A stretch of DNA of 64,000 nucleotides, from positions 2,852,001 through 2,916,000 of the forward strand of contig OY740802.1 of NCBI GenBank assembly GCA_963514005.1, in the 5' to 3' direction. Positions 4,911 to 63,990 of this stretch are shown here, piece by piece (the first letter of the stretch is position 1; each line of letters starts with the position of its first letter). Source of the DNA: Raja brachyura (lineage: Eukaryota). Position numbers and translations under genes: made by a program. The notes beneath the pieces are model-generated. The model was not told the DNA's origin. It did no database searches and worked only from the letters and a program-made list of their open reading frames with translations.

Positions 4911-5115
4911 AGAATGAACTGCAGATGCTGGAGAATCGAGGGTTACACAAAAAGCTGGAGAAACTCAGCGGGTGCAGCAGCATCTAAGGAGTGAAGGAGA
5001 TAGGCGACGTTTCGGGTCGAGACCCTTCTTCAGACGTCTCGACCCGAAACGTCGCCTATCTCCTTCGCTCCTTAGATGCTGCTGCACCCGCTGAGTTTCT
5101 CCAGCTTTTTGTGTA
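4911..5115. mobile_element. Fold-back PLE terminal-repeat insertion with hammerhead motif
   Basis: Two inverted arms. Flanked by the 16-bp direct repeat aagcacaaacagttaa (4895-4910, 5116-5131). Confidence 0.85.
5006..5033 (-). ncRNA. Minimal hammerhead ribozyme motif (PLE type)
   Basis: Minus strand CTGAAGA A GGGTC TC GACCC GAAA C GTC gives both core boxes, a 5-bp stem II, palindromic ACGT stem III and a GUC site. Stem I is weak. Confidence 0.7.
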
Positions 5116-5531
5116 AAGCACAAACAGTTAATCTTACGAGACATGAAGACCCAAACTTCAAAACACTGTGTACAGTTATACCCAGTGGCCAAATTTAAAT
5201 TCTGGTTTTCACATCATCTAAACCTCTCCAAATCATGAGATCTGTGCAGAAATGTAATTAACCAGTTCTGACCTGTACAATAAAGTACAACTAGGAATCG
5301 AACTTTTGCAATAGTAATACATTGTTCTGCTCAGAGTCTGAAACCACATGGAACTTTAATAACCTGACCATTCTCAACAAACACAAAATATGACATTTAG
5401 AAATCTTAACTCCACTGTTGATGGTCTTCATGGAGAAAGCAACCAACCTCTGACATTGCTTCTGCAACATTATTCTCTTCCAATATCACCACTATGACAG
5501 GGACAAGTTAGTATGCTAACTTAGAGTCTGT

Positions 5532-6814
5532 CAGGCACGTGCCATCAGGGTAGGCAAGGTAGGCACTGCCTATCCTGACTAAAATTATGAAATGGCAATT
5601 ATTAAATATAAATTGTAAAGGCATGGGAGAATTATGCCTATGTAAGAGACCGATCTCTTAGGTAGGCATAATTCCCTGTGCCTTTCATCCGCAGCACTTG
5701 TGACACGGGAAGCTCTGTGCAGCCCACGTGCCGTCAGCGCTGCCTGAAGCCGTCAATTTCAATCGGGGCTGAAAGCAGCAGAAATTCTGCCTTTGCAGCA
5801 CTGCGCATGCGCAGTATCATACTGCGCATGTGCATCAGTCTACTGCCGGGGTGTGCTCCTTTCACAGCGTTTGGGGAGTCTGGCCCGGGGTAAAGTTGCG
5901 GGGAGGGCACGAATGTTATGAATGAGGGGTCGGGGGGCATCCACTTGCGACGCTCCTTGCAAGGGGGCGTGCAATGACACCGCTCTGAGGCCGGGGGGGG
6001 GGGGGGGGGGGGGAGAGAGAGAGAAGTAGCTCGGGTGGCTGAGCGGCCACCGGGCCGGACAGCGGAACCAGCCGCCACCTTAGCTCCTTCTCCCGGTACC
6101 CGCCCACCTCTGGCAGCTCTCCATCTAAAAACCTCTCTCCTGCCGCTCGCTGGCCTCACTCATGTCCTTAAATTCTGACGTGCGATTGAGATTACTCGGC
6201 TGTGGGAATTTAAGGATTTGCAGGAAGTCGCTGACATGAGCGAAGTCGGCGAACGGCAGGTGACAAGTGTTCAGACGGAGAGTACTGCCAAAGGCGCTGA
6301 AGTGGCGGCCAGTTCAGCTGTCAGGTCCCGGTGGCCGCTCCCCGAGCTGCTTCTATCCCCAGCTACAGTGCGTGGCTTCGCGCCCGGAGAGCTGCGGCAG
6401 CGGTGAGTGAGTGAAGATTCCAGTACTTTGTGATAAGTACTTTCTTGCGATTTTCACCATTGCTCCTCACATGTCCAGCCTACAACCTCTATATATCGCT
6501 CAGACCCTCCAGTCCTGGCACCTTCCTCGTAAATGCTCTCCGTGTCCTTTCCAGCGCCGGCAGTATCCCCGACACCTTCCTCCTCAACACTCGTGCCCTC
6601 CCCACAACTTTACCCCTGGCACAGACTCTCCACACGCTGTGAAAGGAACTGTCTCCCCAATTGGTCTAGGATTAGGACGCCTTGGGCAAATTGAAATGTC
6701 ACAGTTTTTATTTATTTATTTAACGGGAATAACAATCTGCGCATGCGCGGTTTAATTTTTTTTTTTAAGCAGACTGAGTGCCTACCCTGAGTAATTACTC
6801 ACAGCACGTGCCTG
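5532..6814. mobile_element. Non-autonomous hAT DNA transposon, CpG-rich
   Basis: TIRs CAGGCACGTGC...GCACGTGCCTG, exact 8-bp TSD GAGTCTGT (5524-5531, 6815-6822), subterminal taggca/tgccta repeats and no transposase ORF. Confidence 0.9.
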
Positions 6815-7234
6815 GAGTCTGTACAGTCTAATTATAATGACTCCAACACTAGATAGCTAATTTTAGCTGAATGAAAACAGAAGCTAACACAGATATTGTT
6901 TGTCCATGATCCAATGCGCAAAAGCATTTAAGAATAAGATATTTATGTGGAACTCTACAGGAGGTGGGAAAGGACAAATTTGGAGTACAAGCAGACCCTC
7001 TGAATTCACTCCATGGCTGAGGCTTCACTTTAAGCTGCAGGCCTTGATATGCAGCAACTCTCAGCCCAGCACTGGGCCCCAACTGGCGCAGGAGTACACA
7101 AGTGCAAACTTTGTAAAATGCATTCATTCAGGAGAATGCTGCAGCAAAAGCTGCTAACGTGCGCTTTTAGGGCACAAGGCAAGCTGAATGTGGACTCAAA
7201 ACTGGTGGATGTGAAGTAAAGTACGCATTATCCC

Positions 7235-61345: not shown

Positions 61346-61679
61346 TCAGACAAAAAAAATGCGAGTATTTATATGCAACCAGGCAACTTTGGTAATTTAA
61401 TGTAGTATACCCTTATATTATCATTTTTAACCATGTTTTGGCGGTGTGAATAAATGCCTTTTTATGCCTTTATTTGTCCATAAATGTCTTTTTTGTGCCT
61501 TTTTTGTACTTTTATTATGCCTTTTTGCCTGCCTATTTCAGAGTTTTTTAGTGCCTAAACATCCTGGCTCTTGTAATAATGATTACCCGTCACTGTTACT
61601 TATCTTGTATTTACAATCTACTTGTTGATTGGAAATGCTAGTTGCAATTAATAAGGTTAGTTTTCGTGGAGTCATTGAG

Positions 61680-62750
61680 TCACACAGCATGGAAACAGGC
61701 CCTTTGGCCCAACTTGCTCATGCTGACCAAGATGTCCCATCCAAGCTAGTCCAATTTGCTCATGTTTGGCCCATATCCTTCTAAACCTTCTACACTGACA
61801 ACTTCTAAACCTTCTACATTCACAACAATCTACACTGACAACTTCCATATGCTCACCACCATTTGAGTGAAAAAGTTGCCCCTCAGATTCTTATTAATTC
61901 TTGCCCCTCTCATCTTAAATCTATGTCTTCTGGCCCTTGATTCCCCTGTTCAGGGTAAAAGACTCTCTGCATTCACCCTATCTATTCGCCTTATGATTTT
62001 ATACACTTCTATAAGATCACCTCTCATCCTCCTGCACTCCAAGGAATAAAGTTCGAGCCAACACAACCTTTCCCTATAACGCAGTCTCTCAAGTCCTGGC
62101 AACATCTTCTTAATCTTCTCTGCACTCTTTCCAGCTCCAGGTCATTTATTGATGTTTTGGAAAAATGCAATAAATGCAAAAATTTATAGTTATAAATAAT
62201 CATTGAAAATATTATAGGTTGAGAAAAAATGCTGGAGAAACTCAGCGGGTGAGGCAGCATCTATGGAGAGAAGGAATAGGCGACGTTTTGGGTCGAGACC
62301 CTTCTTCATTATTACTATAAACTATTATTTGAAGGTTGCACTTGCAGTCCAGTGTGTGAGATCTGATGTATCTGGATCCTGTCAGGTGAAGTCAGGAGAT
62401 ATAAAATCTTGAGAGGAAAAGATTGGGCAGATGCACAGAGTCTCGTGCCCAGAGTAGGGGAATTGAGGACCAGAGGACATAGGTTCAAGGTGAAGGGGAA
62501 AATATTTAATAAGAATCTGAGGGGTAACTTTTTCACACAAAGTGTGGTGGGTGTATGGAACAAGCTGTTAGGGGAAGTGGTTGAGGCTGGGACTATCCCA
62601 ATGTTTAAGAAGCAGTTAGACAGGTACATGGGTAGGACAGGTTTGGAGGGATATGGACCAAGCACAGGCAGGTGGGACTAGTATAGCTGGGACATGTTGG
62701 GCAAGTTGGGCCGAAGGTCCTGTTTCCACACTGTATCATTCTATAACTCT
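61680..62750. mobile_element. CR1 fragments (- then +) with a PLE repeat between
   Basis: KLPLRFLL..(antisense) and PRVGELRTRGHRFKVKG motifs. Confidence 0.8.
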
Positions 62751-63990
62751 AAGTTATTACTGGAATTATTGATGTCTGAGGTGAGTACTCCAGATTGCCA
62801 AGTGCACCTCATCACTTAATCATCATTGAGAAGACTAATGGGCTTGTCCCACTTAGGCGATTTTTTCCGGCAACTATCATAGTGACTATGGATGTACTCG
62901 CTCAAAGTATATGGGTTATTGAGGGTGGACAGGGAACAATTCAACATAGAGTCAGAGGCTTGTAGAGCATGGAAACATGCCGTTCATCCCAACATGCCCA
63001 TGCTGACCAAGATGCTCCTTTTAACCCTGTGCCACTTGCCTCCATTTGGCCCATGTCCCTCTAAACCTTTCCGATCCATGTACAATAGACAATAGGTGCA
63101 GGAGTAGGCCATTCGGCCCTTCGAGCCAGCACCGCCATTCAATATGATCATGGCTGATTATCCCCAATCAGTACCCCGTTCCTGCCTTCACCCCATATTC
63201 CCTGACTACGCTATCTTTAAGACCATGTACCTGTCCAAGCATCTTTTAAATGTTGTTATTGTACCTGCCTCGAGTGTACGGCAGCTCGTTCCATATCCCA
63301 CCACCTTCTGTGTGAAACCGGTTGCCCTCAGGTTCCTATTCAATCTTTCCCCTATTAAAACTTCCTGATTTAGAGCAATGGGAAATGTTTCCCCTCTGAG
63401 AAAAAGGTATTAACAGCTGGGCATTAAAAAAAAACACTTCGTTTTATGTATTTTTGTGAATAGCTTGGACAAATAAAGTTTGCTTCTCATAAGTGGTCCT
63501 TCGAATTGGTTTGGATTATAAATGTGGACCTCCCTGCTATATAGTCGAATACCACTGCTGTGATCCAATTCGTATTTTACTGCAGGAGAGTAAGTTTAAT
63601 TTTTTTTTAATAAATACAGAACAGCAAATATTTATCCAAACATTAAATTGCAAGCACTGATTCTTTAAACTTTTCGATGATATGAATGATCACATTGAGA
63701 ATTCGCAGGGAGACACAAAATGCTGGAGTCACTCAGCGGAACGGGCAGCATCTCTGGAGAGAAGGAATGGGTGACTGAAAATTCACAGAGCAGTTTTGTA
63801 GATGCAGCCAGATTGTAATAAAATAGTGCGTACAAGCAACTGCTTCACAAAACGGATCAAAGAGCCTCAATTTCCCTCCTGGGATAAATAAAGTTCTATC
63901 GTATCGTAAAGCAATCATGATGGAGAAATCTGAAGGAAAGAACTGCAGTTGCTGGTTTAAACCGAAGATAGACATAACATGCTGGAGTTA

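Follow-up and report, generated by a model that had tools for sequence, protein, structure and literature searches.

The stretch of DNA analysed here, 64,000 bases of the skate Raja brachyura (GenBank assembly GCA_963514005.1, contig OY740802.1, positions 2,852,001 to 2,916,000 of the forward strand; hereafter the window), is densely populated by a short repeat that carries a 28-base motif resembling a hammerhead ribozyme. The repeat accounts for 58 segments and 5,635 bases, that is, 8.8% of the window, and it is almost certainly the pseudo-long terminal repeat (pLTR) of a young, intact Penelope-like element (PLE) with a minimal hammerhead motif. The features are collected in Table 1. Offsets are counted from the first motif base (C3 = 0), which places the predicted cut between +27 and +28. 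Published sources are cited by their identifiers and were drawn on in part, and statements resting on them extend to those parts.

Table 1. PLE-derived features of the window (UTR, untranslated region)
Feature	Position	Strand	Remarks
All 58 pLTR-derived segments	4906..63776	both	7 satisfy the strict minimal-hammerhead descriptor
Head-to-head inverted pair of short pLTR copies	4906..5122		Minus strand 4906-5035, plus strand 5035-5122; a fold-back arrangement typical of PLEs
Exact motif	5006..5033	-	Copy spans -2 to +127, tail included
Solo short family-A copy	13150..13246	+	From A -3, with G before the start; one helix II mismatch
5'-truncated family-A PLE	22927..23516	+	GIY-YIG C-terminus 22927-23172, ~245-base UTR, motif, 3' end at +94, no tail
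AGT preceding the core	23419..23421	+	5' strand of the 2-bp helix I and putative RNA start (A -3 / G -2 of initiator-like YCAGTC); 5' end pile-up, extra G
Exact minimal type-I hammerhead motif, young family A, downstream pLTR	23422..23449	+	C3 = 23422; predicted cut after C17 = 23449
Decayed GIY-YIG remnant	31929..32147	+	An inverted pLTR pair, likewise decayed, follows at 32239-32417
Older family-B PLE, 3' part	40589..41265	+	CX4CxxC linker and GIY-YIG (40589-41029), 106-base UTR, motif at 41138, tail
Exact motif	43560..43587	-	Short copy from -1; inverted partner 43604-43685; inside KIF3B intron
Decayed GIY-YIG remnant	48765..48949	+	
Exact motif, subfamily C	49498..49525	+	A at position 1.1
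Family-B fragment	59889..60196	-	GIY-YIG end 60196-60119, ~100-base UTR, motif 59989-60016 ending in GUG, tail; tblastn

The motif is present in perfect form at four sites, as an earlier interpretation of the window made from its letters alone (the sequence-only reading) had stated, and no fifth exact site occurs in the 64 kb. When up to 6 mismatches were allowed, 27 sites were found, compared with none in 50 shuffles. The nine variants named in the sequence-only reading are likewise all there, but several lack a defining base: G12 is lost at 20763, the copy at 59989 ends in GUG instead of NUH and is predicted to be non-cleavable, helix II has a 1-base deletion at 41138, and the helix III palindrome is gone at 16453 and 29496. 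The repeat had also been placed directly 3' of GIY-YIG endonuclease C-termini. Using tblastn, we located endonuclease ends at three loci, but the motif is separated from them by the UTRs of ~245, 106, and 100 bases. The peptide of the copy at 22927-23516 is 95% identical to the intact natural open reading frame (ORF) P0077 described below, which identifies the copy as young family A; the family-B copy at 40589-41265 shares 80% amino acid identity with P0077, is 76% identical at the DNA level to the family-A copy in the window, and has a shorter UTR. The identical 28-mer is also found at several family-B loci elsewhere in the genome.

With the GIY-YIG frame of the window as a query, the genome returned 128,243 first-look candidates. 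The motif lies no more than 450 bases downstream (at most 5 edits) at 23 of 32 GIY-YIG loci and is there in decayed form at several others. When a Chiloscyllium reverse transcriptase (RT) protein was used as query, 14 of the 69 matches listed fell within frames that run for at least 1,203 codons without a stop. Twenty loci were fetched for full-length anatomy, and in all 19 that were examined the motif stands 236-254 bases past the stop codon. Eight of the 19 combine an unbroken frame (1,203-1,221 codons) with a second motif 127 bases ahead of it. Natural full-length copies carry the motif in both pLTRs, which bears out the earlier assignment of the repeat to PLE termini. The element anatomy, the motif at both ends, and the positions of the copy ends (see below) are direct observations.

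The ORF P0077 (L077:3727-7305) encodes 1,192 amino acids and contains an intact RT (YIDD), a CX4CxxC linker, and a GIY-YIG domain. Its domain matches (RVT_1, E = 5e-4; GIY-YIG, E = 2e-3) are both under the Pfam cut-offs. Compared with RT-endonuclease (RT-EN) proteins, it shows 49-66% identity, and homologues have PF00078, PF26215, and PF01541. The order of RT and then GIY-YIG endonuclease in one ORF is that of endonuclease-bearing (EN+) PLEs, as are the partial-tandem pLTRs, the inverted 5' copies, and the optional 30-40-base tail. An inverted partner accompanies 27 of 110 family-A copies, and a strict search for target-site duplications in 29 solo copies found duplications of 7-15 bases in 8. 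The CX4CxxC stretch lies between RT and EN both in P0077 and at 40589-41029 of the window; a linker of the form CX2-5CxxC marks the Neptune or Nematis clades (PMC8557442). Based on this linker, which Nematis also has, the element is likely a Neptune-type PLE.

Two further properties of the ORF deserve mention. Residues ~160-460 of P0077 form a Pro-rich low-complexity stretch of ~300 amino acids between the N-terminal domain and the RT, which is not in the invertebrate relatives and is reminiscent of the long inserts, also in frame, in Penelope ORFs of Adineta (PMC3846280). A frame at L077:3614-3735 begins with an upstream ATG (+50) and closes just past the ORF start codon at +163, with which a donor-like AAG/GTATGC overlaps. 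An upstream ORF or 5' splicing ahead of P0077 is possible.

Across the 2.70 Gb of the genome, the exact 28-mer was counted 50,608 times and its reversed control not once. Density was sampled in 77 arbitrary 10-kb stretches (80 were requested, of which 3 did not exist). These contained 13 exact 28-mers, 163 copies at up to 7 mismatches (control 0), and 265 nhmmer matches covering 3.7% of the bases, which extrapolates to 0.57 million copies genome-wide (0.49-0.67) based on the mismatch count and to 0.93 million based on nhmmer. A sequence-free structure descriptor, a type of search that the sequence-only reading had proposed, yielded 28 motifs in the same stretches (reversed control 0), all from the same pLTR family and 19 with a helix I of at least 2 bp. 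This corresponds to ~98,000 descriptor-intact motifs genome-wide (65,000-142,000), or 36 per Mb, so the large genomic scale anticipated from the window is borne out. Xenopus has been reported to contain ~9,000 minimal motifs and coelacanth ~4,000 (PMC4209133), and axolotl, with a much larger genome, 126,247 type-I motifs (PMC7229834). An estimated 4% of the skate genome would be reassigned from an unnamed SINE (short interspersed element)-like repeat to PLE terminal repeats.

Minimal hammerheads of metazoan PLEs have been described by CUGANGAH, G10.1-C11.1, GAAA, a palindromic 15.2-16.2 pair, and UH (PMC4209133). The skate motif has all sequence features of this consensus: taking the commonest letters, it contains CUGANGA, GAAA, and NUH, an A between 9 and 10.1, G10.1-C11.1, and a C-G palindromic 15.2-16.2 pair, in agreement with its earlier designation as a minimal type-I hammerhead motif. 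It falls outside the canonical type-I hammerhead, which has a 6-bp helix I, loop 1-loop 2 contacts, and an Rfam match: helix I has 2 bp, and an Rfam scan of the window gave no hammerhead match at E ≤ 5.

Conservation was assessed in a core-independent sample of 362 matches collected by the flank at +36..+88, of which 268 reaching the motif were used and 58 were truncated or decayed, the rest being dropped as short or duplicate. Among the four subfamilies, 1 of 28 columns differs in the core (in loop II), compared with 13 of 31 at +30..+60 (Fisher p = 0.0005) and 7 of 34 at +61..+94 (p = 0.003), a comparison in which that downstream flank also served to label the subfamilies and the cores of the four queries were near-perfect. 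Pooled counts agree, in that frequent non-CpG alternatives in the core occur only in loop II and at 11.4 (A to G, pairing kept). The catalytic bases and four fast-decaying CpGs are the commonest letter in all four subfamilies, and 261 of 272 copies have a purine at position 1.1. The excess of core over flank conservation that the sequence-only reading had called for is present.

In 80 intact-core copies, helix I comprises exactly 2 bp in 47, as had been cautioned beforehand, and more in 7; the 2.1-1.1 pair is possible in 68 and the 2.2-1.2 pair in 63, and a third pair fails in 66. The 4-bp helix II has U-A in 69 of these copies, U-G in 9, and a broken pair in 2. The covariation once proposed as a check on helix II therefore appears in the skate as a one-sided change from U-A to U-G, and two-sided change is found only in the metagenome look-alikes described below.

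Several results weigh against strong catalysis by the skate motif. Its helix I consists of U-G or U-A plus G-C; of 56 published examples, 6 have a helix I of 2 bp, and in each of these both pairs are G-C (counted from PMC4209133); judged by its letters, the skate helix I is weaker than all 56. Within the skate genome, no compensatory (two-sided) change was found in any pair. ViennaRNA predicts helix I with a probability below 0.001, a cost of ~3 kcal/mol for adding helix I to the dimer, and preferential pairing of the core 5' strand with the flank at +29..+44, and the folding z-scores of the four window copies are ~0 relative to shuffles. The flank is also well conserved up to +128, which means that the core sits in a conserved block. 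Finally, helix I has at least 3 bp in 72 of the 92 metagenome look-alikes.

The predicted pairing of the core 5' strand with the pyrimidine flank, at 23424-23466 of the window, is seen for families A and C and does not exceed shuffles; an off-state hairpin is a possible interpretation of this model.

The look-alikes are 92 distinct motifs from 123 metagenome loci (L170-L292) that share the core. Pairs outside the search pattern are formed in 86, 86, and 83 (helix I) and 78 (helix II) of the 92, with several pair types; none of 2,000 shuffles gave counts as high, a result that is inflated by related sequences. The covarying helix I and helix II pairs indicate that motifs of this class do fold as hammerheads. 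The loci, which are probably PLE ends of invertebrate hosts, represent many families of textbook-like minimal hammerheads whose helix I of 3-6 bp covaries and whose flanks are AT-rich; the elasmobranch-type flank was found at none of the 123. The pattern also gave 57 prokaryote and 6 viral matches, which, judged by their titles, were attributed to chance.

Minimal PLE hammerheads have been reported to show no activity as monomers and weak activity as dimers (PMC4209133), and the PLE hammerhead of Anolis cuts solely with protein (PMC11167929). Among nine Xenopus dimer elements, one was cut in vitro and eight were not (bioRxiv 2026.07.22.740005). Based on the sequence evidence, we regard real self-cleavage of the skate motif as an even bet. 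The eight uncut Xenopus elements also speak for a vestigial ribozyme, one that no longer cuts in skates and is kept as an internal promoter (an initiator combined with a downstream ACGT element at a distance of 27-30 bases) or as a binding site for the ORF protein. Such a loss of function would fit the weakest helix I seen, which lacks compensatory change and predicted folding, and the occurrence of a cut-site start in 1 of 110 copies (see below), and the internal promoter of Drosophila virilis Penelope has an RGACGTGY downstream element (PMC2377424). We nevertheless consider it doubtful. The catalytic bases and the four CpGs are kept in four subfamilies though the flank changes, the core changes that do occur lie in loop II or preserve pairing, and the same core is found with a full, covarying helix I in other animals. 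A promoter alone would leave the joint presence of CUGANGA, helix II, and GAAA unexplained.

Copy ends were mapped in 110 copies of family A for which the anchor lay downstream of the cut site. The 5' ends lie at -4..0 in 50 copies, at +28 (the cut site) in 1, and upstream of -19 in 35, and the 3' ends lie at +86..+96 in 73 and at +125..+131 in 28. A second set, partly motif-selected, has 4 of 198 5' ends at +27..+29. Insertion from cleaved RNA, as in an R2-like model, was rejected on the basis of the single copy among the 110 that begins at the cut site. Genome-wide, exact 38-mers number 51,713 at +42..+79 versus 9,907 at -32..+5, across the upstream edge. The 5' end pile-up falls on YCAGTC, which we take to fit the initiator consensus.

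A G immediately precedes the junction in 16 of 32 ends at -3/-2, compared with 19 of 74 internal truncations (p = 0.02); a first, small test had not reached significance (4 of 6, p = 0.07). In genome-wide counts, A -3 is preceded by G 2,039 times, by A 1,075 times, and by T 627 times, and G -2 by G 3,525 times and by T 1,583 times. An extra G is a known trace of a copied cap; untemplated addition by RT may be an alternative source. Some of these data count against a single capped start. The 35 copies that extend upstream past the putative start imply that other templates exist, and the G excess is found at both -3 and -2, so that the cap-G test points to no one exact start base. Among the G loci that were inspected, 13 of 30 and 6 of 20 are inverted junctions, and 5 of 30 have one common amplified flank. 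Loci L459, L466, L472, L478, and L479 have a common head-to-head junction and 3' flank, that is, an inverted pLTR pair amplified inside another repeat.

Copies across the pLTR-ORF junction number 571 by exact match; in 24 of 28 the 3' end lies at +177..+264, and for several the 5' end lies at -6..+3. Only priming near the RNA 5' end can make such short, junction-spanning copies. The two 3' ends of the mapped copies match the two internal RT start sites and the tail of the Anolis element (PMC11167929). Small tandem arrays of pLTR-ORF junction units (~190 and 311 bases) with a retrozyme-like layout were seen at L296-L298 and G000:C1:162939586-162940241. Contigs of four organisms contain the motif with its flank, which attests to presence in relatives, not to expression. 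Depth in these contigs jumps at -4, and none of the differences listed (40 of 126) falls in -4..+33; both observations are weak, as other subfamilies are unaligned upstream. In D. virilis, Penelope starts 46 bases plus an intron further upstream (PMC2377424), so the start-at-motif layout of the skate is not general.

The short copies might instead be ordinary 5' truncations made from the downstream pLTR, with the RT dropping off or meeting a splice acceptor (a pyrimidine tract plus CAG) just upstream. PLE insertions are strongly 5'-truncated (PMC8557442), a pyrimidine-rich tract ending in CAG does precede the motif, and an intron of D. virilis ends at helix I (PMC4209133). However, the ends fall within 5 bases that include A -3 and G -2, upstream of the exon start after CAG, solo copies have no common exon sequence ahead of them, and the extra G is enriched over internal truncations. 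The downstream pLTR cannot yield the junction-spanning short copies, and, as a weak further point, no recurrent GT..AG joint was found in four contig sets among 15 of 22 entries. Truncation is, in our view, improbable as the general origin of the short copies. Less probable still is that the short repeat forms a non-autonomous element of its own, SINE- or retrozyme-like, which has separate master loci and relies on the PLE for mobilisation in trans: short copies are about five-fold commoner than long ones in family A, pLTR-derived non-autonomous retrozymes occur in vertebrates (bioRxiv 2026.07.22.740005), and some inverted junctions are amplified (5 of 30), but the subfamily sequence and both 3' ends are common to short and long copies, some short copies reach into the ORF, and only 11 of 272 copies have a tandem neighbour, unlike retrozyme arrays. 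A non-LTR retrozyme in the strict sense, built of tandem non-coding hammerhead units, was rejected on the same count.

On balance, we lean towards the explanation that the repeat is the pLTR of a young Neptune-type PLE and that the motif constitutes the first 30 bases of its capped RNA, where cleavage would be weak and would depend on dimerisation and the help of protein. The short repeats are probably complete copies of the first 95-130 bases of uncleaved, capped, internally primed RNA. Transcription would start 2-3 bases ahead of the core, at the initiator-like YCAGTC, which would explain why helix I stays short. The ORF protein would prime reverse transcription within the pLTR at +93 or +128, the 35-base difference corresponding to the PLE tail. 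Priming in the downstream pLTR would give long 5'-truncated copies, and priming in the upstream pLTR would give a complete 95-130-base copy of the RNA 5' end, that is, the dominant short repeat, with fold-back at this end producing head-to-head pairs. Most copies begin at the motif 5' edge, which explains their SINE-like look and had been missed in the sequence-only reading.

Two motifs would pair through ACGU, and RNA cut behind GUC would lose its cap together with 30 bases that lie ahead of the ATG at +163. Since insertions derive from uncut RNA, cutting is likely a side branch and not the insertion step; it could act as a translation brake or as a route to unit-length or circular RNA. We consider it speculative, and rather unlikely in its entirety, that the PLE hammerhead is the extreme 5' end of a capped transcript and a protein-triggered decapping switch, with ~4% of the genome consisting of uncut 95-130-base copies made by upstream-pLTR priming and forming the densest vertebrate store of hammerhead motifs known, silenced in host introns by the two-pair helix I. 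In this young family, whose ORFs are intact, the tens of thousands of nearly identical insertions preserve a record of both the RNA start and the RT start. They also show that insertion of cleaved RNA hardly ever occurs. These records limit the roles open to the ribozyme, whose function in endonuclease-bearing PLEs has been stated to be unclear (PMC8557442).

Many pLTR copies of the window sit within introns of two genes. A long minus-strand exon at 41782-43203 encodes a kinesin, KIF3B, whose identity is 97% with the Amblyraja radiata protein, 95% with that of other rays, and 91-92% with that of sharks; the frame at 757-1125 resembles an ASXL1 N-terminal exon. The segments 9381-10631, 32775-33131, 38060-38374, and 62367-62681 are 3' fragments of the reverse transcriptase of a LINE (long interspersed element) that we take to be of the CR1 type. 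Broken frames at 60072-61400 (+), which adjoin the PLE fragment at 59889-60196, look to us like the remnant of a DNA-transposon transposase.

The basic association of hammerheads with PLEs is not new, having been published in 2014 for the fish elements Xena, Poseidon, and Neptune (PMC4209133), and the skate family is a very abundant addition to it. As supposed in the sequence-only reading, the family itself may be undescribed. In the parts of the source used, Table S1 and Fig. S3 of PMC4209133 contain no chondrichthyan, and the main text of the little skate genome paper (PMC10115646), as far as it was covered, contains neither "Penelope" nor "SINE". Our literature search, with repeat libraries outside its scope, found no description of the skate PLE family or of the motif letters, and nothing linking a PLE start site to a hammerhead. 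A 2026 preprint sampled a chondrichthyan, with retrozymes and PLEs, and may overlap with the skate family. What is new is that 50 of 110 young copies start at the motif 5' edge, with an excess of an extra G, and only 1 at the cut site.

Compared with known systems, the skate motif is most like the minimal type-I hammerheads of metazoan PLEs (PMC4209133), with which it shares the order CUGANGAH-helix II-GAAA-palindrome-UH, the lack of a real helix III, G10.1-C11.1, the location in both pLTRs, and the prevalence of solo copies with some opposite-strand pairs. It differs in its two-pair helix I with one G-C, weaker than in all 56 listed examples, and in that a single near-uniform motif with ~98,000 intact copies takes the place of many variable families. 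With Neptune EN+ PLEs (PMC8557442), the element shares the RT and then GIY-YIG ORF, the CX2-5CxxC linker, partial tandems, inverted 5' copies, and the 30-40-base tail, whereas its ORF of 1,192 amino acids with the ~300-residue Pro-rich stretch is different, and the linker is also shared by Nematis. The Poseidon element PAc of Anolis carolinensis (PMC11167929) likewise has two internal RT starts giving a tail and inserts from uncleaved RNA. In PAc, however, the start codon overlaps the hammerhead and the RT starts lie inside the ORF, whereas in the skate the ATG is at +163 and the main RT starts are upstream of it, and the ends of the skate copies suggest that the RNA begins at the motif. With the non-LTR retrozymes of animals (PMC7229834; Li et al. 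2026 preprint), the skate repeat has in common very high numbers of type-I hammerheads and a derivation from, or relation to, pLTRs; while retrozymes form tandem arrays of mostly canonical motifs, the minimal motifs of the skate are dispersed, solo or head-to-head, and come from an autonomous element.

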